Shown here: positions 3,503 to 24,104 of the stretch, piece after piece
Layout: each line of letters opens with the position of its first letter
Position numbering within the stretch: the first letter of the stretch is position 1
Program-made: the position numbers and the translations under genes
Source: a candidate division WOR-3 bacterium
GTDB lineage: Bacteria; Hydrothermota; Hydrothermia; B15-G9; WFZT01
Length of the DNA stretch: 64,000 nucleotides
Assembly (NCBI GenBank): GCA_027053075.1
Contig: JALUEE010000047.1
Location: forward strand, 32,001 to 96,000
Direction: 5' to 3'
The notes under the pieces: generated by a model
What the model was told of the DNA's origin: nothing
The model's input: the letters and a program-made list of their open reading frames with translations, nothing else
Database searches by the model: none

Positions 3503-4789
3503 GTTCCGATCCTACCTACGAGGCATGGAAATTATCATCCACCTGAACGTCCCATGAAGCAGAATCAAGTTCCGATCCTACCTACGAGGCATGGAAATGA
3601 AAAATTCGGAATCAATTGCCCTGTAAGTGAATTGTTCCGATCCTACCTACGAGGCATGGAAATATTGGCCTTGTTCCTGCAGAAAACATAAGAGTGTCTT
3701 TGTTCCGATCCTACCTACGAGGCATGGAAATTTGAGATTGAGAAGTAGCCGTCAGTAGTGGAGATAGGTTCCGATCCTACCTACGAGGCATGGAAATTCC
3801 CCATATTCAGCTCGATATAGTTTTTTCAATTCGTTCCGATCCTACCTACGAGGCATGGAAATTACCTCCTTTTATTTTAATTATCCCTAAACCTAACGTT
3901 CCGATCCTACCTACGAGGCATGGAAATGCTTTGACTGATTGAGGTATGTGGAAAGTAAGTAAAGAGTTCCGATCCTACCTACGAGGCATGGAAATTTTTG
4001 TTTATAATCCCTTTCATAACATTTCTCCTCGTTCCGATCCTACCTACGAGGCATGGAAATGCGATCTTCTCAGAGAAATACGGGAACTAAAAGAGGGTTC
4101 CGATCCTACCTACGAGGCATGGAAATGCAAAAGTCCCAGGTAATTGCCCTGGAGAATCCCTTGTTCCGATCCTACCTACGAGGCATGGAAATCTCCGTTG
4201 CCGGCTAATCCGAATGCAAGGGTATTGGTTCCGATCCTACCTACGAGGCATGGAAATTAGATATCGAGAAGATTCTGAGGCTTCCGGTGTATTGTTCCGA
4301 TCCTACCTACGAGGCATGGAAATCATTTCTATTTTCTAACTTGGGTTTCACAAATTTTTCCCGTTCCGATCCTACCTACGAGGCATGGAAATAAACCAAT
4401 ATCACCAAATCCTATATAATCATGACTTTCGTTCCGATCCTACCTACGAGGCATGGAAATGAATAGACTATAAAAGCCCAGCCGTTTTGAGTTGGTGTTC
4501 CGATCCTACCTACGAGGCATGGAAATTATGTTTGGAAACATGAAATAAAATGGTATAAGAGAGTTCCGATCCTACCTACGAGGCATGGAAATCCGGAAGA
4601 CCCAGAAAAGATAAAGGAACTTGATGTAGTTCCGATCCTACCTACGAGGCATGGAAATACGGTTTTATCCACACCGTACACGGAGTTTGACAGGGTTCCG
4701 ATCCTACCTACGAGGCATGGAAACTCCAATCCTCTTTTAAGACAAATACATACGGCAATGTTCCGATCCTACCTACGAGGCAAAAAATT
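3503..4789 (+). CRISPR. CRISPR array, 20 repeats / 19 spacers, repeat GTTCCGATCCTACCTACGAGGCATGGAAAT (30 nt)
   Basis: Repeat starts counted at 3503, 3569, 3634, 3702, 3768, 3833, 3898, 3966, 4031, 4097, 4163, 4228, 4294, 4363, 4431, 4497, 4563, 4629, 4695, 4760 (last degenerate); spacers 35-39 nt. Confidence 0.98.
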
Positions 4790-4868
4790 TGGTCTATCTT
4801 CTCTGACTCATTGACCTTCTGAGATTGCTTTGAAGATAAAAAATTTTGGGATTTTGAAACGTCCTCCA

Positions 4869-4909: not shown

Positions 4910-5003
4910 AAAATACATTCACCCCACCATCAAAAACTATCCCTTCCCATCCCTCCACCTCCAATTCTTGTTTGAAAGCTCCCCATTCGTTAGAATTTTC
5001 GAC

Positions 5004-8145: not shown

Positions 8146-8165
8146 ATAGTCGGGAGTGACCAATT

Positions 8166-8635
8166 GAGTCTGTTCGAAAGTTCATTCTTTAATATCTACA
8201 TTTGGGAAACAACTGAACCTAAGTTTCCTCTCTCCCACGCAGAGCGTGGGAGAGGGTTTTAAAAGGGTGACACTCCGCTTGAAGATTAGAAGTTTAGGAT
8301 AACGATCTCATGTAGGGTTGAAAAGGGAGTTTGAATACTCATTTTATACGAAAACTTTGAATTATGTTGCCCCTCTCCTTTTATCCTCTCCCCGCAAGTA
8401 TTTATGCGGGGAGAGGAGTATTTTGCGTTTGGAAATATTCGGCTCCCAGGTCGATTTTCGAAGGGCTTTAGGTAGGGGGTTACGTCAGAAACTTTCGAGT
8501 GTTATACTACGATAGAGTCATTAGACAGAAATCCTTAAATTCAATCTTTCATCATTTCCTCCATCCCTGGGAATGAAATGGGCAGGGAGATTCCTCTTTA
8601 AATTCCAGATAAATTGAAATTCTTCGAACACACTT
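8166..8635. mobile_element. MITE with perfect 9-bp target site duplication TGACCAATT
   Basis: Ends GAGTCTGTTCGAA / TTCGAACACACTT; TGACCAATT at 8157-8165 and 8636-8644; internal hairpins shared with 51694-51762. Confidence 0.7.
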
Positions 8636-8731
8636 TGACCAATTAAATTTAGAAATTTTTGCATTGATTATCGAGGCGTTCACTGATTCGGGATTGTTTA
8701 GAACAGAGTGGTAGGGTATGTAGAAACGTTA

Positions 8732-8768
8732 TTGGTGCCGCCGCAAGCTTCGCTTGCGGCGGCACCAA
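8732..8768. terminator. Perfect 17-bp stem hairpin
   Basis: TTGGTGCCGCCGCAAGC-TTC-GCTTGCGGCGGCACCAA. Confidence 0.55.
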
Positions 8769-8944
8769 CAAAAAACGGCATTCCACTCGAATAGAATTTC
8801 TTAAACCCCACAAAAGATATTTTCCCCAACCAAAATCAAACCACCACTGATCAACCTGGTCAGCTCTTTTATCTCCGAAAGTTTAGCCCTTTCAACTAAC
8901 CCAAACTTTATCAGTTGCTTCTTGTGTAGATTGAGATATCTTTT

Positions 8945-8961
8945 TGTTGCATTCTGCGACA
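8945..8961. promoter_or_regulatory. Putative upstream activator sequence for the sigma54 regulator
   Basis: TGT-N11-ACA (TGTTGCATTCTGCGACA) about 70 bp upstream of a -24/-12 promoter. Confidence 0.45.
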
Positions 8962-9030
8962 TAATTGACACCAATCGTCTCATTTTAAGACTGATGGCAT
9001 CCGAAATCCCCTAATTTACTTACAAAGCTG

Positions 9031-9046
9031 TGGCAGAAAAATTGCA
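9031..9046 (+). promoter_or_regulatory. Sigma54 (-24/-12) promoter
   Basis: TGGCAGAAAAATTGCA: exact GG-N10-GC spacing, upstream of the cytochrome RBS and next to an NtrC-family gene. Confidence 0.8.
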
Positions 9047-9077
9047 TCTCACTCTCCGACAAAAGGAGGTGAAGTGT

Positions 9078-10991
9078 ATGAAAAAATTACTGGCCCTGTT
9101 ATTAGTTTTTACCGTGCTACACGGCTATGATGCAAAATCTTCCTGCGTAAAGTGCCATTCCAATAAGGAGCTTCTGAAAAAACTCGGAGCTCCTCAAATG
9201 TACATGGACCCAGCACAGGTCGATAAGGAAGTCAATATGAACGGAGTTCCCAAATGCGTTGACTGTCATCTTGGTAACAATAAAACCATGGACATGAAGA
9301 AAGCCCACAAAGGTATGCTGAAGCCATTCTACGCCGCCATCGGTAAAACCCTTAAATACCAGTATGTTGATCGAAGCGTTACCAACTACGATCGCATACT
9401 TCCAAAAGGGAAGAAAAGATTTAAAGTTCTCATGCGTAAGCCCACCTCTGAGGCAAAAAAGAAATACCACATCAAAAAACTCATGCAACTCTTTTATCAT
9501 GACAGGGACACGGCAACATTTACATTTAACATAAAAATTGCCCAGAAGACCTGCGGAAAATGTCATTCAAAAGAGGTAAATGACTATAAGCACACCTCTA
9601 TGGCACTTTCACTTTATCAAAGGGCATACACGGACTGGACAAAATCACCTCCAGGCCCTCAAAACTGCGGAGTCTGGTTTGCTGACAATTACCAGACAAT
9701 AAAAGGAAAATGTACGAGAGATTACACAGAAAAAATGGCAAAATCAGCTACGAGGGGATGTAACAAGTGTCATACTTCATGTCTTGATTGCCATTATGCT
9801 GGATATAAAAAATCCGTGACAAGCCACAAATTCCTCTCAGAGCCAGAGCCTATGTCATGCTACGGTGGAGGGAGAGGAACCATCTGCCACGCAGGTCCAA
9901 TGGATCGCCGTCGTGGTGCTGGTTATATGAGACAGGAGTTTGCTTTCCCGGTAGGAGAACTCCCAACCGACGTACATAATAAAAATGGTGTCACATGCCT
10001 CGATTGTCACGAGCCTCACAACCATGACTGGGGTCACCTTGCTTCAGCAACTGCACGCAACTCCTGCTCAAAATGTCACGAGGAAATAGTTGATGCTGTT
10101 AAAACCGGCATTCACAAGAATGTTGACTGCACTGCGTGCCACATTCAAAAAGTCGGGGCCTATCAGTTCACATTTTGGGGCCCCGGAATATTTGTTGGCA
10201 TGCCCAACGTTTTTACAAAGCACAAGCAGTATTACGGTGTGAGAAGTATGCCTCTACTCGTCAAACACCCGACGCGTAAAGTCTGGATACCGGTCAAACC
10301 CTATCCTATGGCCGTTATGAACATCTCCGAGGATGTGAAACCCACCGGACTTATGGTAAGGTCTATTCCTGAGGAGAAAATTAAGGGACATCCCGAAGTT
10401 GGAGAGCCTAAATTTTTGAAAGTCAAGCGCTCACCAGACCAGATAAACGACATGTACATAATAACTGGCACGTTTGACGGGCTTAAGAAAAACAATAAAA
10501 TGCTCGCATGGATTCAGATGGATAAGATGTCCCACGCTATCGGAAAGGGTAGATCATGTCAGTCCTGCCACAGCTCTCACGATCAGGTTGCAACAACCTG
10601 GTACACTTATTCCAATATGAAGGATGTACAGAAGAAATTCAGCGGAAGTTATATCGTGAAGGCAACAAAGGACGGCATCACTTTCAGTGGTTTTGAAAAT
10701 CATACACCAATAATTCCAAAGCCGGGAAGAGATGTGGAAGATTTCGCTCCATTTTTAACACTTCCCAACGCCTGGAACGTGAGGGGAATCGACTTCTCCA
10801 TACCGTTTGATGAAAAGAAATACGAAGCAGAGCTAAACAAATACAATATGATTTACGCCGAAATCCACGCACTGAAGCTGAAATATGCAAAGGATGAGGC
10901 CAAACTCGAACAGCTGAATTTGATCAAAGCCATTCTCCCCCACAATCCCGAAAAAGCCCAACAGATGCTGAACGAGATGAAAAAGGGGTGA
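9078..10991 (+). CDS. Periplasmic multiheme cytochrome c (9 CxxCH plus one CX8CH)
   Basis: AGGAGG RBS, signal peptide MKKLLALLLVF; CVKCH, CVDCH, CGKCH, CNKCH, CLDCH x2, CSKCH, CTACH, CQSCH and CYGGGRGTICH. Confidence 0.9.
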   Translation: MKKLLALLLVFTVLHGYDAKSSCVKCHSNKELLKKLGAPQMYMDPAQVDKEVNMNGVPKCVDCHLGNNKTMDMKKAHKGMLKPFYAAIGKTLKYQYVDRSVTNYDRILPKGKKRFKVLMRKPTSEAKKKYHIKKLMQLFYHDRDTATFTFNIKIAQKTCGKCHSKEVNDYKHTSMALSLYQRAYTDWTKSPPGPQNCGVWFADNYQTIKGKCTRDYTEKMAKSATRGCNKCHTSCLDCHYAGYKKSVTSHKFLSEPEPMSCYGGGRGTICHAGPMDRRRGAGYMRQEFAFPVGELPTDVHNKNGVTCLDCHEPHNHDWGHLASATARNSCSKCHEEIVDAVKTGIHKNVDCTACHIQKVGAYQFTFWGPGIFVGMPNVFTKHKQYYGVRSMPLLVKHPTRKVWIPVKPYPMAVMNISEDVKPTGLMVRSIPEEKIKGHPEVGEPKFLKVKRSPDQINDMYIITGTFDGLKKNNKMLAWIQMDKMSHAIGKGRSCQSCHSSHDQVATTWYTYSNMKDVQKKFSGSYIVKATKDGITFSGFENHTPIIPKPGRDVEDFAPFLTLPNAWNVRGIDFSIPFDEKKYEAELNKYNMIYAEIHALKLKYAKDEAKLEQLNLIKAILPHNPEKAQQMLNEMKKG

Positions 10992-11076
10992 AAACGGTGA
11001 GACGTAAGGAACGAATTGTGTTTTTTTATGTCTTGAAAGTTCAACGGGGCTAAAAATCTGATTTAAAGGGGAATAG

Positions 11077-11110
11077 GGGGGCGCCTCCTTCGGAGGCGCC
11101 CCCTAACTTT
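11077..11110 (+). terminator. Intrinsic terminator between convergent cytochrome and cas operons
   Basis: GGGGGCGCCTCC-TTC-GGAGGCGCCCCC followed by T-run. Confidence 0.7.
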
Positions 11111-11171
11111 TTATCGGCATCTCACTGGCTCAAGTTATGGTTTTATTCAATGTGATATCAAACATCTTCAT

Positions 11172-12194
11172 TTAATCAATGACAGGAATATCCATTTCAG
11201 TGACGTCAATTCTCACGAGACTTTTATCACCGGACTGTCTCACATACTCAGCCTGTCTATCTCCCACCACAGCCTCAAGAATCATTGCTGATGATACCAT
11301 CGCGGTCCCACCGGTTATATTAAAACTAATATCGCTATCTTCATAATTTTTGAGATTTTGCAGCAACCTATCTAATTCAATCTTAACGTCTCTGAAATCA
11401 CTGACATCAACAACTCTGGACTTTTCTATGATCAAATCTCCCGTGGTAATTCTTTTTTCGAGATGTGGAATAACCTTCAGAAATTTTTCAAAATCAGCAA
11501 AATGTTCTTTTGCTTTCTCTGATAATATGACAATAACCCCTTCAAGAATGTGATTTTCGTGTATAATTGCTCTCAACGCCGGTGTCCAGTTGCCGGGCAA
11601 GTCTTTTAAAGTTTCCTCTTTAGGTATTGCCGGGTTACCCAGTTGCCGTAATTTTTCTTGAAGAGATTGAATCTGTTCAAAGGGCTCACTGCTGGGCAAA
11701 CTCAGTGCAAAGATAAGAACTTTTCTGGGGAGCGGTTTATCGTGGGCAGGTTTTTCTTTTGGCTCGAACAAACAATTGATGTATAGTAGAGGCAATAAAA
11801 ACAGAAACAAGATTGCCAATATGAATGTCAGAATGTGATGCCAGAGTAAGCCCTTATTGTAATCCGGTGTTAAAACAAGTATCCCTGCATCCCTCACACT
11901 ATCAAATACCCAGGAAATCTGGAATAAAACACTCAGGAAAATCCAGATGGACAGGTATCTATAAATTTTCTTTAACCCTTTTCGCGGTGGCTCTTTTAGA
12001 AAGTTACGAAGGGCATCTGTGAGGCCAATAGATTTGTCCTTATATTTATACATCAAGATGGTTATTGCTGAAATCAAAAGGATAATCAATAAAGTTTGGC
12101 CTAACGCCATAAAGGAGAGTATAAATGGGAAAACGCTTGAAAAGGCCAAAAGTGCAATTATGAACAGTATCTTTAAAAATTCCCTGAAGCTCAA
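11172..12194 (-). CDS. CRISPR-associated membrane effector: about 4 N-terminal TM helices plus C-terminal CARF-like domain (Cam1/Cam2-like)
   Basis: Four hydrophobic segments in aa 1-140; Rossmann-like VLIFALS start and CARF motif-II-like ISFNITGGTAMVSSAM; last gene of the cas operon. Confidence 0.7.
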   Translation of the reverse strand: MSFREFLKILFIIALLAFSSVFPFILSFMALGQTLLIILLISAITILMYKYKDKSIGLTDALRNFLKEPPRKGLKKIYRYLSIWIFLSVLFQISWVFDSVRDAGILVLTPDYNKGLLWHHILTFILAILFLFLLPLLYINCLFEPKEKPAHDKPLPRKVLIFALSLPSSEPFEQIQSLQEKLRQLGNPAIPKEETLKDLPGNWTPALRAIIHENHILEGVIVILSEKAKEHFADFEKFLKVIPHLEKRITTGDLIIEKSRVVDVSDFRDVKIELDRLLQNLKNYEDSDISFNITGGTAMVSSAMILEAVVGDRQAEYVRQSGDKSLVRIDVTEMDIPVID

Positions 12195-12196
12195 TT

Positions 12197-12583
12197 TTAT
12201 ATCCTTCTCATTTCTCTGAACTTTTCTCTGATGCTCTGGAGATTTATTATTTCTGCAACCTCAAATTTTGGAGGGGTAGAATTCGGAACCGGCTTCAATC
12301 TCACTACAGGTGGGAAATATCCCATCAAACCATGAAGTGCTGCAAGGAGGGTGACAGCAATAAAATTAAAGGCTGGTGGAACTATTATAATCGGCCGTGT
12401 CTGCCACTCCTCAGGTGTCAGGTTACACGCCTCAATAAGATCTTTCACCTGCTCCTCAAAAGACTTTTCATTATCAAAAAACACTGGAATCTGCCTTATC
12501 TCCTCAATCTCCTCATCTATCAATTTCCTGATCTGCCCCACCTGCTCCTCAGTTAGTGGATGAGAAAAATTAAGCACGAGCAT
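12197..12583 (-). CDS. csx15: CRISPR-associated protein Csx15 (ring-nuclease-type)
   Basis: N-terminal LNFSHPLT and LHGLMGYFP...EIINLQ motifs typical of Csx15; position in type III operon. Confidence 0.8.
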   Translation of the reverse strand: MLVLNFSHPLTEEQVGQIRKLIDEEIEEIRQIPVFFDNEKSFEEQVKDLIEACNLTPEEWQTRPIIIVPPAFNFIAVTLLAALHGLMGYFPPVVRLKPVPNSTPPKFEVAEIINLQSIREKFREMRRI

Positions 12584-12585
12584 GG

Positions 12586-12713
12586 TTACTTTAAAATTTT
12601 AAACACTCCATATCCCTGATTCCCTTTTGCTCCAACACCTATGTTTTCAAGGGCAAATTCGAGAAATCTTTATCCCAGAATATTGAAAAAGTATCTATAA
12701 AAATAACCTTCCC
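12586..12713 (-). pseudogene. cmr6: 3' remnant of a type III-B cmr6 gene
   Basis: Manual translation: GKVIFIDTF then, in another frame, RFLEFALENIGVGAKGNQGYGVFKILK-stop, both Cmr6-type RAMP motifs; stop 2 nt before the csx15 ATG. Confidence 0.7.
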
Positions 12714-12717
12714 GTTA

Positions 12718-13575
12718 TTATGATTTAATTGGTCGCCATAAACCATTATCCAATATTTCAAAGTAAACATCTTGATCGCTATCCACCTTTGTTCCTGGTT
12801 TCCAAGTCAAGCCTTGTGTATAAATACGCTGTAAGTACCTGCCCTCCAAAACTTCAAAATCTCCTTTAAATTTGAAGTGCGGGTCTGGCATTATATGACC
12901 AAATGCTATATTGGATTTTATGCGTGGATTTGTATGATTCAGTTCCACTTCGTAATCCAAAAAACGAGAAGCTTCCGGATGTTTCACGAGTTCAATATGA
13001 CCAAATCCGTAGCGGGTATCTGCTCCTACCATCAGTTTCTTTATTGAGAAAACTTGGTTTTGAACACTCTCATCGGCAATAAACACATACCCCACCATGA
13101 ACATCTCGGGAGGTGGATAATGGTTACTAATTTGCCAATAAGGTTGAATGCACTCTAATTCGCGAAGTGTCCCTTCCTCAGCACTATCTGATTTGGGATC
13201 AATGGATGTGGAGGGAAACGAATACAGAATTTTTGATTTGAAGTCTCTGTTTGGCTTATCATCATTTGGAGTGTCTTCCCTTTTCCAAACGAGTCCATCA
13301 GAGTATTCTGAATACCACATAGCGTATTCATCGCCAATTTTTTCGGCTGGGAACAGATAGGAAAATCGGACATTTTGTAGCAAATTTTCACCAATCGAAA
13401 TATAATCCGGGAAACTACTTCCTGCCGTATCCCGTGATAACTCGGCTGTTAATGCTCCCCAAATTGTCCTTGCTGGTATGTATAAGCGGGTTCTGTTCAA
13501 AATTCCTGCTGGTGCCGTGCCGATATTTATGGGTGATTTTACCTTCCAGACCCATCGGAACATCTTCCATGCCAT
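12718..13575 (-). CDS. cmr3: Type III-C Cas5-group RAMP (Cmr3-like)
   Basis: SPINIG, RTRLYIPARTIWGALT, VGADTRYGFG glycine loop; terminal position in III-C gene order. Confidence 0.75.
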   Translation of the reverse strand: MAWKMFRWVWKVKSPINIGTAPAGILNRTRLYIPARTIWGALTAELSRDTAGSSFPDYISIGENLLQNVRFSYLFPAEKIGDEYAMWYSEYSDGLVWKREDTPNDDKPNRDFKSKILYSFPSTSIDPKSDSAEEGTLRELECIQPYWQISNHYPPPEMFMVGYVFIADESVQNQVFSIKKLMVGADTRYGFGHIELVKHPEASRFLDYEVELNHTNPRIKSNIAFGHIMPDPHFKFKGDFEVLEGRYLQRIYTQGLTWKPGTKVDSDQDVYFEILDNGLWRPIKS

Positions 13576-13581
13576 AATTTC

Positions 13582-13950
13582 TCACCCCTGTTTGGCCTTC
13601 AAGTGATAACGAGCATACGAGAATGCGGTGCGTAGAAGGTCTCGAGCAAAAAGTAAATCATCTAAATCTTTGGAGTTTGCTAAGAGCTTTATTGCTTCCA
13701 AAATATCGTCCGTAGTATCCAAGCGATTTCCGAAAATGGTCTTGAGAAATTGCAGAGATTCCGATCTAACCTCTTTAGCTACATTGTTATTCTTGGCCTT
13801 GAGATATAGAAACATCGCATACGGGCCTTGCTCTTCCAAAACAGTCAAGGCCTCGTTGACAAGATTTTCATCTATGCCAGAAATCTGGGCTATCTCACGG
13901 CCCAATTCGGCACACTGAATGTCCAAATTTTTCATTTGAGCTTCACTCAC
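13582..13950 (-). CDS. cmr5: Small subunit Cmr5 (Cas11)
   Basis: Small helical protein, ALTVLEEQGPYAMFLYL and YARYHLKA; GTG start at 13950 behind GAGGAGG. Confidence 0.75.
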   Translation of the reverse strand: MSEAQMKNLDIQCAELGREIAQISGIDENLVNEALTVLEEQGPYAMFLYLKAKNNNVAKEVRSESLQFLKTIFGNRLDTTDDILEAIKLLANSKDLDDLLFARDLLRTAFSYARYHLKAKQG

Positions 13951-13978
13951 GGCTTTCCTCCTCGTTTGGTTCAGAGGC

Positions 13979-15010
13979 CTATGACGGATTAGATTGTCTC
14001 TGAGCGGGTTCAACGCAATCAATATCTTGGGTTCCGGGCGATTCATTCTCATGCACAACTTCTACGCGTCCCATGCCTCGAGTGCCCATGCCGCCGATGC
14101 CCAAGTGTTTGAGATAGGGGTGAGCCTGGTGGGTTACCTCATGCACCCTTTCTGGAGAATACATTCGCTGACCACCATCCAGAATGACGCCTATCTCCTG
14201 TCCACCTATTCTAAAATGCTGAGGATTCTTTGCGATAATTTCCCACACCAGGACCGTGGATCGAGGCAGGGCTTCGTAAGAGAAGAGAGCCCTTTCTTCG
14301 GCAGCACCAGTTTCGGGATTGATGGAAACCGAGGTGCGCACTTCCAAATTGCTGTTGACGATGTGGGCGAAGAGGCGGTCAGGCACCAAAGCAAGGCGGT
14401 TTTGGATGTAATCTGGGATACCCAGGCCTTGCAATTTAGTTTTAATATCATTCATTTGGGCACACGCTTGCACAGGCAGCAATAACCAACCCAAGTTAAG
14501 AGGGTTGCCCGAGTTTGATTCAAGGTAAACGGCATTTTCCTCCACCCCCTGCACATTCAAACCTATAAAACGCAAGGTCTGAGGTGCAGTCACCCACATG
14601 GGGCCTTGACGGGTAGCGACAGGGAAGAGCAGCAAATGGACATCAGTAAAGGCGGCCAAGCCTGCAAAACCGCCTTCCTGCCCTGCACCACGGGCGAAAC
14701 CAAAGACAGTGCAAACGGGACAGTCAGGTTGGCGACAATGCCCATGATCCGCATCCAGCCCTAACCCGGCGCAATCGGGGTAAAAAGGTTTATCTCGGTT
14801 CGGAAATTGTGCTGTCCGATTTTCTTCAAAATACATCGCCACATAGGCCCGATACACTCCAGCTAAGCTGGACCCAGGAATTTTAGGCACCTGGGTGACC
14901 GGGTCGCGCACAATAGTCAAATCTACCCGACCGATGCGGGTCCCACCGGTGCCCACATGAATAGGGTCCAGAGCCAGACCAACCTGCAAGAATTTTTTGT
15001 AACTAGACAT
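13979..15010 (-). CDS. cmr4: Cmr4 backbone RAMP (Cas7 group, target RNase)
   Basis: DPIHVGTG, RVDLTIVRD (catalytic Asp position retained), IPGSSLAGV, ALFSYEALP, GIGGMGTRGMG. Confidence 0.92.
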   Translation of the reverse strand: MSSYKKFLQVGLALDPIHVGTGGTRIGRVDLTIVRDPVTQVPKIPGSSLAGVYRAYVAMYFEENRTAQFPNRDKPFYPDCAGLGLDADHGHCRQPDCPVCTVFGFARGAGQEGGFAGLAAFTDVHLLLFPVATRQGPMWVTAPQTLRFIGLNVQGVEENAVYLESNSGNPLNLGWLLLPVQACAQMNDIKTKLQGLGIPDYIQNRLALVPDRLFAHIVNSNLEVRTSVSINPETGAAEERALFSYEALPRSTVLVWEIIAKNPQHFRIGGQEIGVILDGGQRMYSPERVHEVTHQAHPYLKHLGIGGMGTRGMGRVEVVHENESPGTQDIDCVEPAQRQSNPS

Positions 15011-15023
15011 TATTTACCTCCTT

Positions 15024-18000
15024 TCAAACATTTTCTTTAAGGACTATTGTATGCCAATCTATCGCCCATTGGAGTAATCTCTGTTGGGCAGAGTCTATGA
15101 GGGTTTCAAGTGCTGTGCCCCTGACCTCTAAATGGTGCACAAGCATGGCACGGAGAGTATCTTCCCACAAATCTTTTGAAACGGCTCGTTGCCCCTCGGG
15201 TGTTTGCCATTCCTTTTCCAAACGCCCAAGTTCTGTTCTAAATCTCTGAAGAGCCGTTTGGCTTGGGACAACTTTCTTTAATAGGTTCCATATTTCGCGC
15301 ATTTGCTCCCAATCTTCCAAGTAATGTAAATCTGGGTTAGAGAAGCGAGCGGAGGTGCTTCCCATGAAGAGGATGGTTACACGCGCTGTGGATACTTTTA
15401 CACCATCACCTGGACGAAGGTCCGATACATGACGGTAAACACGGCCATCCTTTGGATGGCGAAAATCTCGGGGAAAACGAAGTTGTCGATCCTCAATTAC
15501 CATGTAAGGATAGAACACATCATCTCGCCCATCAGGCATAGCAGTAGGCACTATCTTTAAGATGCTCTTGCCGTCTTCCAGTTTTAAGCGGAGGACTACC
15601 ACACCTGCTTGTCGTTCCACTTCTTCCACCTGCCATGTTTCCTCCTCTCCTTTCAGTTCTTCTTCCATTTTACGTGTTGCTCCGATCACGGCCTGATAGG
15701 GCAACATTCGAGGGAATGCGACCACGCCTATCCGTAAAGGAAGCCGATCCCACACGCGGGAGAAGTGTTCCTTCCACCAGGAAACAGCTATATCCACACA
15801 TTCGGAGGCCGCTTCCAATGGCACCAGCACCCGAAAACGAAGTGGAGAGACTTCTACCGGAATGACCGGGTGATACAAGCTCAAGTGCGCATGAGGCTGA
15901 CGCAGCTCATTCACATGGGTAACAGTCATAGGACGCTCCTGACCAAAGGTATCTTCTTCTTCCAGCCTAATTTGAGCACCCTGAAAGGAACTCGATTGCT
16001 CTTCTGGCCGTAGCAATCTACCCAGATTGGAAGCCGTCACAAAACCTCCCAGGCTACGCACATAGACCAGGCTAATCTGCCGACCTTCCCAACGGCCATT
16101 GTAAAGGGTCAGGTCTCGCCAATCGTTATTGTCGTCTGGAACCAACACCAAGCGTCGGACACGCCAGCAATTTTCGCTGCGAGCCGCTATCTGCCGAAAT
16201 TCCTTCAGCAAGTCATGGAAGAACTCCTCGGCCTCCCGCCAGAAGCGATAGACACGGCCAGGTGAGGGAAGCTTGCGGAAGAGTTGATGCGCAAGCCAAG
16301 CAGCTCGCTGGTCGTCATTCAAGATACCCCATGTAGGTGCATCGGTACGATCCTCTACAATTTTACGGAAAAAAGTTGGCCAGTCATTTTCATACTTGTA
16401 ACCCTCTTGAAGGTTGGCAAGCAATTGGTCGTTTTTATCGAATTTAAAATGCTGTGGATTTTGTGGATCGCGAAACCTTTGTTTTAGCTCGTCAATCAGC
16501 TTATCCATAGAGCCTGTGGGGGCAATAGGATTAGGTTGACCTGAAAGGACCAGGTTAAATCTCACCCACTCCGGTATTGCTTGTACCCGCAGGCTATCCA
16601 CACGGCTGCCATTGAGCCAATCTTCAAGGTCCAGTGAGAATGTTAGCAAAGCCAGGCGGCCGTTGCGGTCAGCCACCTCCTCGAACCAGATGGTGTCGTA
16701 ATCCAGTTGCCCCTGAAGCCATGCATCTCTTCGATGGTGGCGCCGCTCGCGGCATACCGCGCATGGCTTACCCTTGTTGGTGGGATCACCGTTTAGTCGC
16801 ACACGGCAGACGGGACACACATGACCACGCGTCTCTGAAGGAGCCCTCCAATGAACATCCCACTGCTTGTGAACAGGGACGGCCACTACCAGCTTGGACT
16901 CTTTAAGCTCCCTAACAATGGGTACCAATGAACGGGTCGGCTTACTCAGGCGCACAAAGGGCGGGGTTTCCAGTTCCAGATTACGGGCGATTTCTTCTAC
17001 TTGATCTTGGAGCCATCCATTCCATCCTCGGAGCCGGGATGCGAAGTTCTCTTCATCAAACTCAAAATTCGGATCTCTCCGTCTTTGACGTTCCTGTTCT
17101 TCTTCATCGAATCTCTCGCCGGGAAAAGAAAACACGGCCATGCTGCTGTCTCGATAAAGCAAAGAGCCTGCAGCAATGTCCACCTCCACCAATTCAGCTA
17201 CACGACGGAAAAATTCGTCAATGGCACCTTGAGCACCTGTCCAGTCACCAATTTTTACCGCGCGGGCTTCGTAGTGCTCGGTCCCAAGGGCGATAGTGAG
17301 CAGGCGCCAGCGGGTATTGCTTTTGGTAAAATTATTGATAGCCAATTTCTCATCTTTCGATAGGTCATCGAAGGACTTCTCTTTTCCTTTCTTTGTTCTA
17401 AGGTTTATACCCAATTTGGTAGCTATGCTCTTCCAGTTCCAAGGAAAACCCTTATCGAGCAACGCCCCAGCCACCGCGCTCTTAAATAGAGCCGCAGCCA
17501 CATAGGACTGGTCCCACAAGGTAACATCGTTGTTGGGCAAACGCGTCTCGGCTAAGGTGGACATAAAAGCTCTTCGGACAAAAGATTTTTCTCCGATAGC
17601 TCTATTCCGCCAGTCTTGCCAATGAGCTACATCTGACACACCTCTGGTTCCTAAGTCCCGCAACTCCTCCAAAACTCGCCGGATTTCTCCCACCAATTGC
17701 TGCCAGCCCTGTGGAGTCAATAGTTCAGGTGGATTGGCCAGCAGGTTACGCTTTGGGTGGCCCCAAGGTGAGGAAAGCCACATGTGAGGAATGGTTTGCT
17801 TAAGATAATCTGAGGTAGAAGTAGGAAGGTTTTTCTCGACGCCAGAGACAATACCATGTCCTGCTTGGAGTAATCCCAAAAGACCAGGGTTACGTCCTGC
17901 ATGTTGTTCAATAAACGTAGAAAAAGAACCTGGCCATGCATTATTGGGTATTCCACTCCCGTATAGCCGTTTTACCCATTCTAATAAGGTATCCCATGGA

Positions 18001-18182
18001 AAAGGTGGCGTTTCCAAATCATGCCAATGTCGTTCATCGTAGCCGTTGTTCTCGCCACCATGACGGCGTAAAAATTCAATTCGTGCCTTTCCAGCCATGT
18101 GAAACCACCCAATGGCCTCCATTGCTAAGAGTAAAGGGCGATGTTGCCGTAAAGTCTCAGCCGGTGAGAAAGTGCTGCTCAT
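15024..18182 (-). CDS. cas10: Cas10 large subunit, type III-C / Csx11-like, degenerate HD and cyclase motifs
   Basis: ETRLPNNDVTLWDQSY, zinc finger CPVC..CAVC, PSPGRVYRFW; WFHMAGK instead of LHDxGK; no GGDD; ATG 18182 overlaps cmr6 stop (ATGA) with GGAGGT RBS. Confidence 0.88.
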   Translation of the reverse strand: MSSTFSPAETLRQHRPLLLAMEAIGWFHMAGKARIEFLRRHGGENNGYDERHWHDLETPPFPWDTLLEWVKRLYGSGIPNNAWPGSFSTFIEQHAGRNPGLLGLLQAGHGIVSGVEKNLPTSTSDYLKQTIPHMWLSSPWGHPKRNLLANPPELLTPQGWQQLVGEIRRVLEELRDLGTRGVSDVAHWQDWRNRAIGEKSFVRRAFMSTLAETRLPNNDVTLWDQSYVAAALFKSAVAGALLDKGFPWNWKSIATKLGINLRTKKGKEKSFDDLSKDEKLAINNFTKSNTRWRLLTIALGTEHYEARAVKIGDWTGAQGAIDEFFRRVAELVEVDIAAGSLLYRDSSMAVFSFPGERFDEEEQERQRRRDPNFEFDEENFASRLRGWNGWLQDQVEEIARNLELETPPFVRLSKPTRSLVPIVRELKESKLVVAVPVHKQWDVHWRAPSETRGHVCPVCRVRLNGDPTNKGKPCAVCRERRHHRRDAWLQGQLDYDTIWFEEVADRNGRLALLTFSLDLEDWLNGSRVDSLRVQAIPEWVRFNLVLSGQPNPIAPTGSMDKLIDELKQRFRDPQNPQHFKFDKNDQLLANLQEGYKYENDWPTFFRKIVEDRTDAPTWGILNDDQRAAWLAHQLFRKLPSPGRVYRFWREAEEFFHDLLKEFRQIAARSENCWRVRRLVLVPDDNNDWRDLTLYNGRWEGRQISLVYVRSLGGFVTASNLGRLLRPEEQSSSFQGAQIRLEEEDTFGQERPMTVTHVNELRQPHAHLSLYHPVIPVEVSPLRFRVLVPLEAASECVDIAVSWWKEHFSRVWDRLPLRIGVVAFPRMLPYQAVIGATRKMEEELKGEEETWQVEEVERQAGVVVLRLKLEDGKSILKIVPTAMPDGRDDVFYPYMVIEDRQLRFPRDFRHPKDGRVYRHVSDLRPGDGVKVSTARVTILFMGSTSARFSNPDLHYLEDWEQMREIWNLLKKVVPSQTALQRFRTELGRLEKEWQTPEGQRAVSKDLWEDTLRAMLVHHLEVRGTALETLIDSAQQRLLQWAIDWHTIVLKENV

Positions 18183-19198
18183 GGCGTACCTCCTTTGGTT
18201 AGCCAGTTTTGAACTTCCTGCCAGAGTTCGTCGCGAGTATCCTTTTCCACGCTGCCATGAGTTTTGTGGAAAGCGCGCCACTTTTTGATTTCCGCTGTGC
18301 CCCAGCCCACAGTGCGCTTGGCGGAGATCCCATAGGGAGTAAGCAAAGTTTCAATAGCTTCAAGCAGTTTTGGGAGTACATCCACAGGTTTTGCCTCTGG
18401 CTCCATACCGGGCCAGGGCGCGTAAAGTAATGAAAGTGTTCCTTCGGCTCCCTCAACTTCCTCTCTTTCTTGGGTTCCATCAGACTTTTTCTTCACCTGT
18501 ATCGTCCGTCCAGGAACCACTTCATAGTAAATAGGTTGGGTGCCAGCGCGATTGGTACGACTATGTGGGTTGATGACCTCGAAGCCGATCTTGTTGAACC
18601 ACGTGGGGTAGAAGACCAGAGCGCCCTGGTGGAAGTTTTTCTCTTCCTTCTTCTCGTTACCAAAGAGATGCTGAATCCAGTCCGGATCCCACCAGCCATC
18701 TATTTTGCCATTGTGTTGTTCCAGATATTCCATCAGTCCTTCGTGCATTCTACAGGCCCATCGCAGCATGCCTTTACAAGAGGAAGCCGCCATAAATGGC
18801 ACGCCAAAGACCCGGTCTTTACGCACAGGGTTGTCCATCACATGGAAAATTCGGTCATCACGGGAATACCAGGGAGTGAGTAGTTCAAAATCCACCTGAA
18901 GAGCAAGCCAACGATCAGATAATAGCGTGGAAAAGTCAATTTGTAGTCCTGGATACAACTTGACCGGGAATCTCCGAGGCACTTTTCCCATGTATTCCTT
19001 ACGGAGCCTCGTTTTCTCCCGCTCCGCCTGACGTTTTCCCTGTCTGTCATTTGTCTTTTCCGCTTCTAATCGCTTGATTTCAGTCTTCAAGAAGCATTTG
19101 AAAATATGATCGATAAAACCTCCGGCCAGCCTCCAAGCCACCGGAGTGTTTTCCAATGGTTCGCAAGTCTCAAGAAAGATGAAGTAATCCCAAGTCAT
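18179..19198 (-). CDS. cmr6: Cmr6 RAMP
   Basis: PFMAASSCKGMLR, GALVFYPT, EVINPH, PIYYEVVP, GISAKRTVGWG. Confidence 0.88.
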   Translation of the reverse strand: MTWDYFIFLETCEPLENTPVAWRLAGGFIDHIFKCFLKTEIKRLEAEKTNDRQGKRQAEREKTRLRKEYMGKVPRRFPVKLYPGLQIDFSTLLSDRWLALQVDFELLTPWYSRDDRIFHVMDNPVRKDRVFGVPFMAASSCKGMLRWACRMHEGLMEYLEQHNGKIDGWWDPDWIQHLFGNEKKEEKNFHQGALVFYPTWFNKIGFEVINPHSRTNRAGTQPIYYEVVPGRTIQVKKKSDGTQEREEVEGAEGTLSLLYAPWPGMEPEAKPVDVLPKLLEAIETLLTPYGISAKRTVGWGTAEIKKWRAFHKTHGSVEKDTRDELWQEVQNWLTKGGTP

Positions 19199-20421
19199 GA
19201 ATTTTCCTCCTGTTTGAACAATCGTTCCATAATTTGCTCTCCTGTAATGAAATCCTCATTCGGATTAAAGTCCTGCCAAATTTGCCCCAAGCGGCGCTTC
19301 ATTTCTTCAAAATCCACTAAACCCGGCTTCACAAAGCCAAAGGTGCGGCGTGCTTCTTCTGGATGTTCGAAACTGAACACTTTTTTGCTTACCTGTTGAC
19401 TACCCGCAAGCCAGTGATTAACCTCGTTATCTCGCCAGAAGTTCTGCGCTTGGTTCTTCCGCATATTCCTTCCAATGACAAGATTATATGTACTTTTGGT
19501 GAACGATTGCCTTGCCAGATACCGTCCTTTCACGAACCAGAAGTTTTGCAACGAGGCCCAGGCAAAATCTTGGTCGTTAAAGCTCTTTCGCCACCGTTCC
19601 TGTTTTACATATGCTTCTGCTTGCTGCAGAGTGCAGCCAACTCCTTGAGGCCGCTCCTCAACCGTGATGAGCCCGAAATCCTGATGGTGTCTCTTTCCGG
19701 CCCAAGCATTGATCTCCCGAGTTTCATTGTCCCTTCGCACTTTGATTTTGAGAGGTTCACCATGCGGTTTTCCACTAAGGAGGTTTTCAAGGTCAAGAAG
19801 ACGAGTCACCAATGTGCTATCAACTTCCAGGATTACATCGCCTTCTTGTAACTGGAGCCCCCGCCGACTGTGTCGCACTTTTATCTGCCCGCTTGAATCG
19901 TCCAGATCATCGGCGCCAAGATCAGCGATTCCCCATTCATCTGACGGCTTGAACACCGTTTTCCCACCCAAGGCCCCGTATTCGGCAATAAGGTGGATGG
20001 TTGCATCCAGCAGACACCATTCTTCTGGATGAATAGGTCGCAAAGGGATGAAGCGTAGGATAAAAATATTACTCCCGTTGTCGTCATTATCTACCTTGAT
20101 CTGATTTTGGATGACCTTTTTTCCATATTTGTCCACCACCATAAGCCGGAACTTGCGTGCCCAACCAGTGCAACCGAAAAGTTCACAAACCACGCAATGG
20201 TGGCCAGGTTCATGTGGCTGTTTGTTAGGAGCTGGGCAACGAATTTCCGACGCCGTCGGGTCACAAGCCTTCCCACCCAATCCTCGAACTAACACCTCGA
20301 ACCACCAGCGAAGTGAACCCATTATACCGGTCAAGATCGTTCTTTCCCCACGCCTTGAAGCATCCCCTGTGAATATCGGGGTTAGCGCTTTTAACTTCCA
20401 TTCCTCCCATTCTTTACTCAT
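19195..20421 (-). CDS. cmr1: Cmr1 RAMP with PDZ-like insertion
   Basis: LTPIFTGD, GSLRWWFE, CVVCELFGCTG; G-loop GALGGK...DFGLI interrupted by about 80 aa PDZ-like segment. Confidence 0.88.
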   Translation of the reverse strand: MSKEWEEWKLKALTPIFTGDASRRGERTILTGIMGSLRWWFEVLVRGLGGKACDPTASEIRCPAPNKQPHEPGHHCVVCELFGCTGWARKFRLMVVDKYGKKVIQNQIKVDNDDNGSNIFILRFIPLRPIHPEEWCLLDATIHLIAEYGALGGKTVFKPSDEWGIADLGADDLDDSSGQIKVRHSRRGLQLQEGDVILEVDSTLVTRLLDLENLLSGKPHGEPLKIKVRRDNETREINAWAGKRHHQDFGLITVEERPQGVGCTLQQAEAYVKQERWRKSFNDQDFAWASLQNFWFVKGRYLARQSFTKSTYNLVIGRNMRKNQAQNFWRDNEVNHWLAGSQQVSKKVFSFEHPEEARRTFGFVKPGLVDFEEMKRRLGQIWQDFNPNEDFITGEQIMERLFKQEENS

Positions 20422-20543
20422 TAGGATATCTCCATTTTTAAAATAACCTGTAAGGACAAGAGAATAACGGTTTCATCAGGAAATAAGCATTTCGGGTATA
20501 GGGAATCATGGCTGTAGAAATTCAAGAGATAAAAAGTCTCTGT

Positions 20544-20660
20544 GAACCAGAATCTCATTGCGCCTCTTATCGAGGCGGGGCGGAGTTCGGGCTCACCCTC
20601 TGGGTCAGCTCCGCCCATAAACATTGGGGTTAAGACTTTTAGTTTGAAGGTGGTTTTCAT
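20544..20660 (-). pseudogene. cmr1: 5' remnant (39 codons) of a type III-B cmr1
   Basis: MKTTFKLKVLTPMFMGGADP...ELRPASIRGAMRFWF with good RBS, then abruptly non-RAMP sequence. Confidence 0.85.
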
Positions 20661-20697
20661 AGTCCCTCCTTACCCATTCGCAAAGAATGGGATTTTG

Positions 20698-21456
20698 TTA
20701 ATCCTTATTTCTCACCACTTCGATCATGCCGAAGCCCTGGCTGTTTTTGGCTCCCAGGCCCGCATTGTAAGCAAGCATAAACCAGGGCTCGGGCAGGCTT
20801 AATTCATATATTCCTACCCAACCCTTAACAATGACGCCTTTAAACTTCGTTATTATCTCGTTGTGCTTCTTAACCTTTACGGGCTTTATATACCCCTCAA
20901 TTGGTGGGATGTCGTTTTTGGAGAAGTAAGCTTTGGCCTTGCGACGGAGGTTATCAAAGATCAATTCTTCAAATTCTTTCTCGAAGGGACTAAAGTAATA
21001 GGTCTTTCTCTGTCCATCGGACGTGTATAAAGTTCGATAAACTGTTATCGGAGAGATTGCTTTAATTTTCATAGGTCCCGAGAGTTTGAAAGGTCTCTCA
21101 ACCTCAATTGATACGAGATTGCATTTAGCTGAGCCGATTCTTACCACCCCTTCCTTAACCAGTGTAGCTGCGAAAGATTCGAGAATCTCAATATCAACAG
21201 ATGAAATCTTAAACCAAACTCGCCCCTCAAAAATCAGCTTTTTGCTTATCGGATCATACCTTCTATTTTCACCGAAGAGTCTTGAGAAGGTGTATAACTT
21301 GAATCTTCTCTTTCCAAATTGGTAGCCTTCATCATGTACCCATTCAGCGAGCTTCTCTTTGATGTTGTTGAGGATAAAACTCTGGATGATGTGGTTGTAA
21401 TTGACGGAGATTCTAAGGATTCCGTTCTCTGGCTCAAATTTTACAATTAATCTCAA
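20698..21456 (-). CDS. cas6: CRISPR-associated endoribonuclease Cas6
   Basis: HDEGY...FKLYTFS, SPITVY, C-terminal GLGAKNSQGFG. Confidence 0.95.
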   Translation of the reverse strand: MRLIVKFEPENGILRISVNYNHIIQSFILNNIKEKLAEWVHDEGYQFGKRRFKLYTFSRLFGENRRYDPISKKLIFEGRVWFKISSVDIEILESFAATLVKEGVVRIGSAKCNLVSIEVERPFKLSGPMKIKAISPITVYRTLYTSDGQRKTYYFSPFEKEFEELIFDNLRRKAKAYFSKNDIPPIEGYIKPVKVKKHNEIITKFKGVIVKGWVGIYELSLPEPWFMLAYNAGLGAKNSQGFGMIEVVRNKD

Positions 21457-21798
21457 AACATCCTCCTACTTGAAACCTATTTTAATAGTTCGTTAACCGT
21501 ACTTGCAAGTAGCAGGATGACATCGTTGTGAAAAGTTATAAATTGCTGGTTTTGTAGAGATTCTCCATGCGCACGAAGTGGGGGAAAATTTATCAATATA
21601 TTTCAAAGCTTAGCGCTTTATAGTGATCGATAATTCCTATTATTCAAACAAGTTTGATAACGAGTGGACTTTTATGCAAGAAGGCGAATATAATTTCAGT
21701 TTGAAATTGTGTTGGGTAAAGGATGCTTTGAATGTAAACTTACCCTTCATAAGCGTGTATAGGAAAAAATCCCGCGCTGCGGGATAGGAGGTTGTCAG

Positions 21799-23451
21799 AT
21801 GAAAAAATTGTTGCCGGTAATATTATTGGTGAGTACACTATGGAGTTACAAATATGCAGTGGTAATAAAGGGGTCAACTTACAGCAACGATCCTGGGTGG
21901 AGGGCAGTTGCGGACACGCTCATAAATAGACATAACGGCAGGCTTTTTACATGGACATCAAGGGTAACCGATGTGCAGGATTCGTTGAGTGCCTACATGC
22001 CTGATTACATTGCCTTTATTGCCAGACCGGTTATTGAACTGAACGCAAATTTTGTCAGAACCGTATCCACAATGACAAGGGAATTGGACGATGACCCCTA
22101 CGGAGATGCTATCTGGGGAATTGTAACAGGATTTTATGCGGATGATGCCATTCGTGCAGTGACAGTTGATAGTTTAAGAGTAAAAAGCCTTCTCGGTGGG
22201 TTTATCGGCTATACCGGACTTGTCCATCAATCCATTACCACCTCAGTCTCCCAGCATCACAGAATTGTATTTACTTTTCCTGATAGGGCCGTAATTGATA
22301 CTGTTGCAAGTGACCTGTGTCCCACGGACAGAACATATATGCTTGCAGGATATTTGAATAACGGATTCAACGATTCATTACCGGGTCATCCACGCATTGA
22401 GGGACCTGTGGATATGTTTGTAACTTCAGGGCATGCCAATGTAGATGTCTGGCAATTGCATTATCCTGATCCGGACGATGAAGGATACTTCCGGTCAAGA
22501 TTCCCTGGCCAGCTTTATGGTGCTCCCCACAGTGGAGCAGATACTTTAATAAATTCTACCAATCCCAAAGTCTATTATGCCCCGGGGAATTGTTTGATAG
22601 CAAATCCAAGTATGTATGACAACATGGTTTATGCCTGGTTCCACACGGGCGGGGCAATCCAGATGATAGGCTACATAGTGGTAACATGGTATGGATACAT
22701 GGGATGGGGAGTTGGATCATATTTCTTTCAATCTCAGGGAGACTATACCCTTCAGGAATCATTTTTCGCCAACAATCAGTCCCTTGTTTATGATTTACTC
22801 CACGGTACTCCGGGCACTGATTCATCGGGTCTGGCTTATGATAAGGACGCAGTGGTAATATATGGCGATCCTGCGCAACCTGTGAGACTTTATCCGGTAA
22901 GATCACCCCTCTACTCTCAGAGTTTAACTGTCCGTCACGGTTCAACAAGAGATACTTTCGAATACAGAATTACGGTTAATTACGACAGCACCGCTTTAAG
23001 CAGACATCCTATTGGATTCCTGCCCTACAGGATTGACAGCGTCCAAATATTAGAAACTAACGCTGTTGATGCCGTTGTAACAGATAACTTTGTGATGCTG
23101 CACTGCTGGCATTCGGGAATGCAAAGACTGAGTGCGGGTGATCAGAGGTACGTAATATTTACCGGTAAACGAATACCCACACAGGTACAGGAGACACCGG
23201 AACCTGTTCAAATTGATTTCCCTTCAATGGTTACGGGTGAATACTTAACCATTAGATTCGGAAACGTTAGTCAGGGACCCTGGCAACTCAGTGTGTACGG
23301 GTTAGATGGACGTAAAATCCTTAGTCAAAGGTTATTACCCAATAGTGGCACTCGCTTCACTTTGCCATGGAACCTGCCCGCTGGAGTTTACTTTGTGAGG
23401 ATTTACTCAAACACTACAGGAGTGATGAAAAGGGTAATAGTTGTTAGGTAA
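21799..23451 (+). CDS. Secreted protein with peptidase C25 (gingipain)-like His/Cys motifs and C-terminal sorting domain
   Basis: Signal peptide; TSGHA and PGNCLI motifs, IYGDPA; tail VYGLDGR...LPAGVYFVRI. Confidence 0.55.
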   Translation: MKKLLPVILLVSTLWSYKYAVVIKGSTYSNDPGWRAVADTLINRHNGRLFTWTSRVTDVQDSLSAYMPDYIAFIARPVIELNANFVRTVSTMTRELDDDPYGDAIWGIVTGFYADDAIRAVTVDSLRVKSLLGGFIGYTGLVHQSITTSVSQHHRIVFTFPDRAVIDTVASDLCPTDRTYMLAGYLNNGFNDSLPGHPRIEGPVDMFVTSGHANVDVWQLHYPDPDDEGYFRSRFPGQLYGAPHSGADTLINSTNPKVYYAPGNCLIANPSMYDNMVYAWFHTGGAIQMIGYIVVTWYGYMGWGVGSYFFQSQGDYTLQESFFANNQSLVYDLLHGTPGTDSSGLAYDKDAVVIYGDPAQPVRLYPVRSPLYSQSLTVRHGSTRDTFEYRITVNYDSTALSRHPIGFLPYRIDSVQILETNAVDAVVTDNFVMLHCWHSGMQRLSAGDQRYVIFTGKRIPTQVQETPEPVQIDFPSMVTGEYLTIRFGNVSQGPWQLSVYGLDGRKILSQRLLPNSGTRFTLPWNLPAGVYFVRIYSNTTGVMKRVIVVR

Positions 23452-23466: not shown

Positions 23467-24104
23467 GGACCTGTTCGAAAATTTCTTATTGGGCATTAAA
23501 TCTTATTGATATCTTTCACCATTCTCCCCTAACCCCTCCTTCCTCAAGGGAGGAGGGGAATTTGGACTTGCAATGAGCTAAACGTGATAGATGCAGGGTC
23601 AAAAGGGGATCGTCTTGCGAAAGGATTTTCTAACCAACAAAGATATCCACAGAATCTTCCTCTCACCACGTAAATACTTGCGGGGATAGGATTGAGGTGA
23701 GGGGCAACAACTTAATTTTTCAAGATTTCAAGTGGAATGCCCCCTCCCTGAATCCCTCCCCCGCGCATCGCGCGGGGGAGGGGTGCCTTTATGTGTATGC
23801 TACACAAGATTCGCTCGTGAGGGAATGACACTTGCCACATAGACGGAGTTTCAGCTTCCCTGAGTAAATTTTCTTGTGTAGAGAGAAATCAGGGGAGAAT
23901 GGGAAAAATTAACTATCTTTAGGTCGTCTAATAGAGCGATATTCCTAAACATGCATAAAATACCAATAAATTTATCCATTCCACCCCACCCCTCCCTTCC
24001 AAAGGAAGGGAGGGAGTTTTGCTACTTGTCGTGCCTGGAGAAAGTTGTTTAACATCACTTCCATACGCTACATAATAGCAAGGGGGACATTTTTGAACAG
24101 GCTC
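23467..24104. repeat. Composite hairpin-rich MITE/REP-like cluster
   Basis: Ends CCTGTTCGAAAA / TTTTGAACAGGCTC; modules such as CCATTCTCCCCTnnCCCCTCCTTCCTnnnGnAGGAGGGG recur at about 26490 and 44763. Confidence 0.7.

Follow-up and report, generated by a model that had tools for sequence, protein, structure and literature searches.

In the 64,000-nucleotide stretch analyzed here (the window; positions 32,001 to 96,000 of the forward strand of contig JALUEE010000047.1, assembly GCA_027053075.1, from a candidate division WOR-3 bacterium), a subtype III-C CRISPR effector module appears to have replaced in place about 7 kb of a resident III-B operon, from codon 39 of cmr1 to the last third of cmr6. 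We assign this history, together with the function predicted below for the incoming complex, a probability of roughly 0.78. The locus lies on the minus strand in the order cas6, cmr1 stub, cmr1, cmr6, cas10, cmr4, cmr5, cmr3, cmr6 remnant, csx15, and a gene for a membrane-anchored CARF protein (TM-CARF), and the host assembly is a metagenome bin (95% complete, 3.55% contamination). An earlier note on this DNA had proposed that the effector was swapped while cas6 and the ancillary genes were kept, and this is supported by the family of the two remnants, the cas6 tree, the relatives of the cassette, and the bridged junctions. [quoted passage not shown] The swap is therefore an already known kind of event, and the locus is a well-preserved case of it.

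The left scar directly follows cas6 and is the 5' end of the resident III-B cmr1, 39 codons long (20544..20660, minus strand). The earlier note had recognized it as a cmr1 fragment with its own ribosome-binding site, and this was confirmed: the 39 residues score 38.1 bits against TIGR01894 (cut-off, 28.65), and an AGGAGG site lies upstream. The frame does not end at 20544 as the note had it, however, but stays open through 40 unrelated codons of a 123-bp linker with a guanine-plus-cytosine (GC) content of 34% (20421..20543, minus strand), giving a 79-amino-acid open reading frame (ORF) that ends in TAATG, its stop overlapping the new cmr1 start. A search with the stub ORF yielded 14 longer proteins, two of which, P0002 and P0003, are 100% identical to the stub over the 39 codons and continue as full Cmr1. 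The stub is also 79 to 95% identical to the cmr1 that opens III-B operons in genomes G003, G006, G010, G058, and G060. A Cmr1 of this type directly follows cas6 in G003 (same genus, 86%), G006 (89%), G058, and G060, and it precedes cas10-cmr3-cmr4-cmr5-cmr6 in G006, G058, and G060 and, up to the contig end, in G010. The same 79-amino-acid ORF occurs at 94 to 95% identity in three other assemblies; in two of them it and a PDZ-bearing Cmr1 are on contigs of equal size (2,576 and 9,485 bases), which suggests the same arrangement as in the window. The linker had no match in the fetched loci by blastn or tblastx, and no hit to the stub ORF covers it except in the cluster with the identical junction. 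A likeness of the linker to a later part of Cmr1, seen early on by eye, was not supported. A promoter scan of positions 20300 to 21900 gave 6 sites, against 2.9 ± 1.8 in shuffled sequence, and was not informative. No RNA data set was listed among the sequencing runs with matches.

The right scar, directly before csx15, is a 3' remnant of the resident III-B cmr6 (12586..12713, minus strand). The earlier note had read it as one cmr6 fragment; the profiles and the relatives uphold the gene assignment but not the single frame. A first piece beginning GKVIF (12713-12663) and a second running from LEFAL to the stop (12663-12586) are in different frames, and they lie 50 bp apart versus 231 to 264 bp in four of five intact relatives (the fifth was not parsable), corresponding to an internal deletion of about 180 to 215 bp. 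On a III-B Cmr6 profile built from five proteins, the first piece reaches 8.0 bits, a value that none of 20,000 random genomic peptides attained, and the second reaches 37.7 bits. With a III-C Cmr6 profile built from eight proteins, the second gives 2.8 bits; it is 75 to 83% identical to the Cmr6 of operons of the III-B family as well as to that of G001 and G011. In G001, which belongs to the same genus, the Cmr6 of this family is followed by TM-CARF.

Because the stub and the cmr6 remnant match the Cmr1 and Cmr6 of the same operons, both scars point to one III-B family, arranged cas6-cmr1-cas10-cmr3-cmr4-cmr5-cmr6 in relatives, and the sequence comparisons support descent of both remnants from it. 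The two comparisons that the earlier note had suggested, of the scars with III-B Cmr1 and Cmr6 and of the locus with related genomes, thus both agree with its proposal. The resident cas6 (20698..21456, minus strand; TIGR01877, 127 bits) groups, in a tree of 17 Cas6 proteins, with P0024 and the same-genus III-B cas6 of G003 and with L079 (support, 100/99), and the cas6 genes of G003 and L079 precede cmr1 of the type lost from the window. A related cas6 stands before III-B genes in those two loci and before III-C genes in the window. Arithmetic from the coordinates, with G006 as the reference, puts the loss at about 7 kb and the gain at 7.8 kb. Searches of the 95% complete assembly found no III-B cas10, cmr3, cmr4, or cmr5 and no match to a Cmr2-type Cas10. 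A second cas6 was likewise not found there, tblastn returning only the window gene. The assembly holds two arrays (the second, of 8 repeats, at a contig end; C57:3429-3958) and a type I module with cas1, cas2, and cas4 and no adjoining cas6 (C30:494-8306); C30 carries cas1 and a cas8-cas7-cas5-cas3-cas4 set, 63 to 70% identical to G060, in which the names other than cas1 were given by eye and gene order. The retention of cas6 would be explained by its being the sole copy found in an assembly with arrays and a separate type I system.

Both junctions are present in sequence from other sources. In a hydrothermal-vent metagenome run (X1), the best of those found and perhaps the source of the assembly, a 4,061-bp unitig covers positions 10800 to 14413, including the right junction, with no mismatch; the left junction is not among the X1 rows shown. 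In data from another study (X2), the left junction is bridged by an 8,109-bp contig whose alignment to the window, in pieces of about 91% identity, extends from 12689 to 20670. This contig extends 214 letters beyond 12689, a length that fits an undeleted cmr6 remnant in X2. X2 and X10 also have loose ends, located at 12663 and 20544, whose sequence continues, in our own translation, as intact cmr6 and cmr1. Since contigs and the three other assemblies hold the junctions, the arrangement is not an assembly error. An X1 contig that joins 12574 to 20544 was considered as a III-B allele of the same species and dropped, its match to csx15 being 41 bases long and its Csx15 resembling that of a relative.

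Between the scars, the earlier note had claimed a complete cmr1-cmr6-cas10-cmr4-cmr5-cmr3 set in the III-C order. Profiles, PADLOC, and the open frames bear out the set, and the same order occurs in other Csx11 loci. By sequence, the cassette qualifies as subtype III-C: its Cas10 scores 285 bits against the Csx11 profile TIGR02682 (cut-off, 249), PADLOC identifies Cas10c (6e-115) and a III-C Cmr5, and the Cmr set is full, with Cmr1, 3, 4, 5, and 6 in open frames and the III-C small subunit. All six genes are on the minus strand: cmr1 at 19195..20421 (PF03787 above cut-off), cmr6 at 18179..19198 (PADLOC Cmr6, 2e-62), cas10 (Csx11; 1,052 amino acids, ATG at 18182) at 15024..18182, cmr4 at 13979..15010 (TIGR02580, 113 bits), cmr5 at 13582..13947 (PADLOC III-C Cmr5, 1e-29; its start, a GTG near 13947, taken from sequence context), and cmr3 at 12718..13575 (PADLOC Cmr3, 7e-73). 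The Cmr1 carries an inserted PDZ domain (approximately residues 165 to 243; window 19690-19930, minus strand), supported by PF13180 above cut-off, by alignment, and by a predicted model that matches the PDZ domains of HtrA/DegQ in a fold search. PF13180 was counted by hand in 52 of the best 120 Cmr1 homologues; the clade to which the cassette belongs is a widespread one within III-C, without either Cas10 motif and frequently with PDZ in Cmr1. A literature search for PDZ with Cmr1 returned one unrelated paper, and a search for III-C complexes since 2022 returned no study of such a complex.

Composition sets the cassette apart from its host. Its GC content is 48.6% versus 43.9 ± 1.7% for the genome, and none of 890 genome windows of 7.7 kb reaches that value. 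Codon usage, referred to 1,299 long ORFs of the same genome, places cmr1, cmr6, cas10, cmr4, and cmr5 in the lowest 1%; the percentiles are 4% for cmr3, 11% for TM-CARF, 13% for cas6, and 99% for csx15. The cassette has relatives in three genomes of the same class but other families (G023, G022, and G017) and in nine from other groups; their Cas10 proteins are 60 to 79% identical to that of the window, and by identity rankings the nearest relatives are in unrelated phyla. Rankings and composition together point to a foreign origin. In G023, which has the same cassette, the repeat of the adjoining array ends ATGGAAAC, and that of the window array ends ATGGAAAT. No relative of the window Cas10 was found on viral contigs, and there was no transposase or integrase among the scanned ORFs and no terminal repeat or att-like end at the cassette ends. 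A 10-bp direct repeat near both ends (20449 and 12709, minus strand) was tried as a target-site duplication and rejected, as such a repeat arises in 8% of shuffles.

The incoming Cas10 appears to lack both catalytic sites. At the HD position it has H28-M29, so that the HD motif is absent (it is not required for III-C); among the rows aligned (100 of 150 hits long enough, plus 7 from the loci), HM is found in 22 of 24 close full-length rows and HD in 46 of 83 distant rows. The cyclase motif GGDD aligns to SPLR at residues 779 to 782, where the flanking pattern of strands and helices agrees. None of ten motif variants of the cyclase site occurs in the window Cas10, and the rows shown lack a cyclase motif at the aligned position. 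A predicted model (pLDDT, 94) matches the Cas10 chains of III-A and III-B complexes; no solved relative was found by sequence. Two Cas10 sequences of the lost III-B family were checked, and both carry HD and GGDD. In an alignment to 4w8w, D30 of the window Cmr4 corresponds to Asp 26 of P. furiosus Cmr4, which we take to be the catalytic residue. No other Cas10 or SMODS cyclase was found in the assembly by searches with TIGR02577, TIGR02578, PF22335, and PF18144, for which positive controls worked.

The two ancillary genes are csx15 (12197..12583, minus strand; NF040560, 167 bits), of a ring nuclease or sponge family that binds cyclic tetra-adenylate (cA4), and the gene for TM-CARF (11172..12194, minus strand; PADLOC CARF_2M, 1e-23), a protein of 340 amino acids with N-terminal hydrophobic helices in the hydropathy profile and a C-terminal CARF domain in the alignment. 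The architecture of TM-CARF is Cam1-like; there was no sequence match to a solved Cam1 structure at E≤1, so membership in Cam1 is by architecture only. Because the incoming Cas10 is without HD and GGDD, the III-C complex probably cuts only target RNA, through Cmr4, and is predicted to make no cyclic oligoadenylate and cut no DNA. By the same token we think it likely, from these sequence comparisons, that TM-CARF and Csx15 were orphaned by the swap. The "chimeric system" of the earlier note is sustained in that the effector was exchanged and cas6 and the ancillary genes were kept; what resulted is probably an effector beside orphaned ancillary genes, the cyclase having been removed by the swap. 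In addition, csx15 begins 2 nt past the old cmr6 stop (window 12586-12583) without an obvious ribosome-binding site, and it may have lost its translational coupling in the swap.

We propose the following course of events. The first joins would have been illegitimate, given that no transposase or att-like end was found, and a left join that kept the stub frame open would have been favored because ribosomes that initiate at the resident start could then be handed on to the cassette. The cas6 gene would have stayed as the only copy, serving the arrays and the separate type I system, and the cmr6 remnant would have lost about 190 bp later. Related strains may now also exchange sequence through the stub, which would act as a homology arm. 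In the present locus, the host Cas6 would supply CRISPR RNAs (crRNAs) to the III-C complex, and cleavage of target RNA by Cmr4 without cyclic oligoadenylate would leave TM-CARF and Csx15 without a local signal.

Stubs of this kind recur. They were surveyed with N-terminal profiles because TIGR01894 missed one of them, a III-C-type cmr1 stub ahead of a PDZ cassette (L042 280-399). On a metagenome contig the exchange appears in the reverse direction, a III-C-type stub standing ahead of cmr1 of the family lost from the window (L076 789-1031). In G009, a 43-codon stub of the same family as that of the window precedes a different III-B module with its own cmr1 (L011 7166-7330). Of 69 full-length RAMP starts for which upstream sequence was available, 4 have a stub; the set is biased, and the window is part of it. 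Among 301 genomes of one other phylum there were 70 matches, no two of which are tabulated less than 600 bp apart, and the table for 18 genomes of another phylum gave 2 matches. In all four loci, of the three frames only that of the stub remains open until it is no more than 15 nt from the following start, and in three it ends in a TAATG or ATGA overlap with that start. Since the stub frame runs on to the next start in every case, selection for translational coupling is suggested.

The start of cmr1 also appears in other combinations. P0002 and P0003 have an identical N terminus (65 residues by BLASTP, 75 by eye) and are about 27% alike beyond it. The stub ORF also retrieved five short proteins; in P0307 a start of the window type is followed by a tail of the G009 type, and P0308 and P0310 have other tails. 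A Cmr1 N terminus that continues into at least four other sequences (P0002, P0003, P0307, P0308, and P0310) suggests a recombination hot spot at this point. We infer a variable slot with cas6 and the cmr1 start as its left anchor, in which homologous donors would give chimeric full cmr1 genes and distant donors a stub, in-frame joins being kept. A broader and quite tentative proposal is that the cmr1 5' end is a reusable docking site for type III modules, with in-frame joins selected and the stub used as a homology arm; a population might then cycle between a signaling III-B module, a second III-B module, and a III-C module without both Cas10 sites and with a PDZ Cmr1, switching its cA4 effectors on and off.

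Several results weigh against parts of this reading. The foremost is that the csx15 and TM-CARF frames are all intact and 94 to 100% identical to the cluster members; csx15 has two private substitutions, neither at an invariant column of an alignment with 10 homologues, and shows no sign of decay. The alignment of GGDD to SPLR has an hhalign probability of only 40%. Cmr1 is only 76 to 78% identical among strains that share the left junction, which suggests that the swap is not recent. The GC excess covers cmr1 to cmr4 and ends near 13950, with cmr5 and cmr3 at 41%, and cmr3 is only 37 to 46% identical to its homologues; the cassette itself therefore seems to be a mosaic, and its cmr5-cmr3 end (12718-13950), more diverged than the rest, was probably acquired in a separate earlier exchange. 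The impression in the earlier note that the cassette is richer in GC than its flanks thus holds overall but not for these two genes. Trees of Cas10, Cmr4, and Cmr3 leave the window copy unplaced, so no donor was assigned; of the separate phylogenies that the note had called for, that of cas6 places it with III-B-linked cas6. Stubs were found at none of 27 full-length cmr1 starts in 30 loci from an unselected sample of 301 genomes. Finally, the read-through, for which chance gives 1 in 81 with real linkers and 5e-4 with shuffled ones, was judged by a criterion set after looking and with n = 4.

The intactness of TM-CARF and csx15, seen in the near relatives as well as the window, is the chief argument for the view that they are not orphans, a view that is compatible with the same swap history. 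Under it, their cA4 would be supplied in trans by a Cas10 that the assembly lacks, or the III-C Cas10 would make a signal at a noncanonical site. A cyclase may have escaped assembly, since completeness is 95% and contig C99 carries a further III-C piece that is cut; X2 holds pieces of the cassette and of TM-CARF and csx15 at similar depth, and ring nucleases acting in trans have been proposed (10.1101/2024.09.24.614671). The profile searches for a second cyclase came back empty while their controls worked, though, the rows shown have no cyclase motif at the aligned site, cyclase sites are reported absent from III-C loci (PMC11229360), and the intact cluster members may stem from strains that still have III-B. 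We consider this view unlikely, if well short of negligible.

A less probable alternative, to which we give only a small chance, is that the III-C module was first inserted inside the III-B operon and that separate outward deletions then left both remnants, with no single replacement. Erosion does occur at the locus, as the later internal deletion in the cmr6 remnant shows, and decayed cmr1 starts without a replacing module are known (L146, L195). The assembly retains no trace of III-B cas10, cmr3, cmr4, or cmr5, however, the right join falls within a few bases of the cmr3 stop, and both joins are common to a lineage about 9% diverged, as the X2 contig matches the window across the left junction and, on the other side, into the first cmr6 piece as far as 12689. 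The evidence only partly separates replacement in one step from insertion with later deletion. If the remnants were decayed duplicates of cmr1 and cmr6 from the cassette itself, they would likewise be Cas7-family RAMP sequences weakly like the cassette genes (the stub is 46% identical to the inner cmr1), but this explanation is already refuted by the identity of the stub to III-B-type Cmr1 and by the Cmr6 profile scores, unless the family assignment of P0002 and P0003 is wrong. An assembly chimera of two organisms, for which one could cite the contamination of the bin and the X1 contig that joins both flanks around other sequence, is scarcely credible given the mismatch-free X1 unitig, the X2 contig, the junction-spanning ORF in three other assemblies, and the passage of the flank-joining X1 contig, by eye, into a G009-type Csx15, which makes it look like a relative's locus.

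As in the exchanges described previously (PMC6452270), cas6 and the arrays stayed while the effector genes changed across subtypes; there, exchange was inferred from the gene content of relatives, whereas the window shows both breakpoints at the level of the base, with the signaling genes left behind. Exchange beside cas6 is usually inferred from trees, and because both breakpoints are visible here and the preswap alleles are intact in close relatives, the mechanism is open to study. A search of the literature on module exchange with remnants, with subscription papers and supplements outside its scope, returned no title on gene-stub scars. In Marinomonas, horizontally acquired III-B modules flanked by direct repeats use type I crRNAs (PMC5576922). 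There too a mobile type III module adjoins the cas6 of a host that also has a type I system, but the module of the window is III-C and replaces another module, and its sharing of crRNAs is putative.

Subtype III-C is MTH326-like, with Csx11 (TIGR02682) as the Cas10 analogue (PMC3973734). Its loci are reported to have no cyclase sites, no known effectors, and HD in half of the cases (PMC11229360), with very few ring nucleases (PMC11229360; 10.1101/2024.09.24.614671). [quoted passage not shown] The window conforms in its Csx11-type Cas10, III-C Cmr5, gene order, and lack of a cyclase motif; it differs in also lacking HD, in the PDZ domain of Cmr1, and in adjoining TM-CARF and Csx15. Cam1 is a TM-CARF effector activated by cA4 (PMC11229360), to which the TM-CARF of the window is alike in having transmembrane helices and a CARF domain, and Csx15, compared with published accounts (PMC13148439; 10.1101/2024.09.24.614671), is above its family cut-off. 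With a cyclase-less Cas10 beside intact genes of the cA4 pathway, the locus catches a step before the loss of signaling genes, and it makes it possible to test directly if RNA cutting by itself justifies retention.

Some observations concern other III-C loci. Contig C99 of the assembly (2,236 bp) carries a second, different III-C piece, cmr4-cmr5-cmr3, which is 57 to 69% identical to same-genus G004 and is cut by the contig ends. The closest relative of the window Cas10 (L037 9902-13087) is split across several frames, and no cas6 match or array was found beside the cassette in L037, L038, or L039. In L153, L155, and L163, III-C loci of the same class, there are long cmr1 frames or 1.5 to 3.5 kb between the cmr1 and cmr6 starts.

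Elsewhere in the window, a CRISPR array with 20 repeats of 30 bp and 19 spacers of 35 to 39 bp lies at 3503..4790 (plus strand), separated from the cas genes by a two-component pair and a multiheme cytochrome (4830-10991, plus strand). Its spacers have no self-match in the genome outside the array. About 460 bp ahead of it are four degenerate 30-nt direct repeats spaced 65 to 75 nt apart (2808-3043), possibly an old array. A many-copy family of GC-rich intergenic palindromes, which we take to be REP-like, occurs at 3092-3229, 23511-24020, 26431-26532, 44654-44806, 49645-52188, and 60509-60613.

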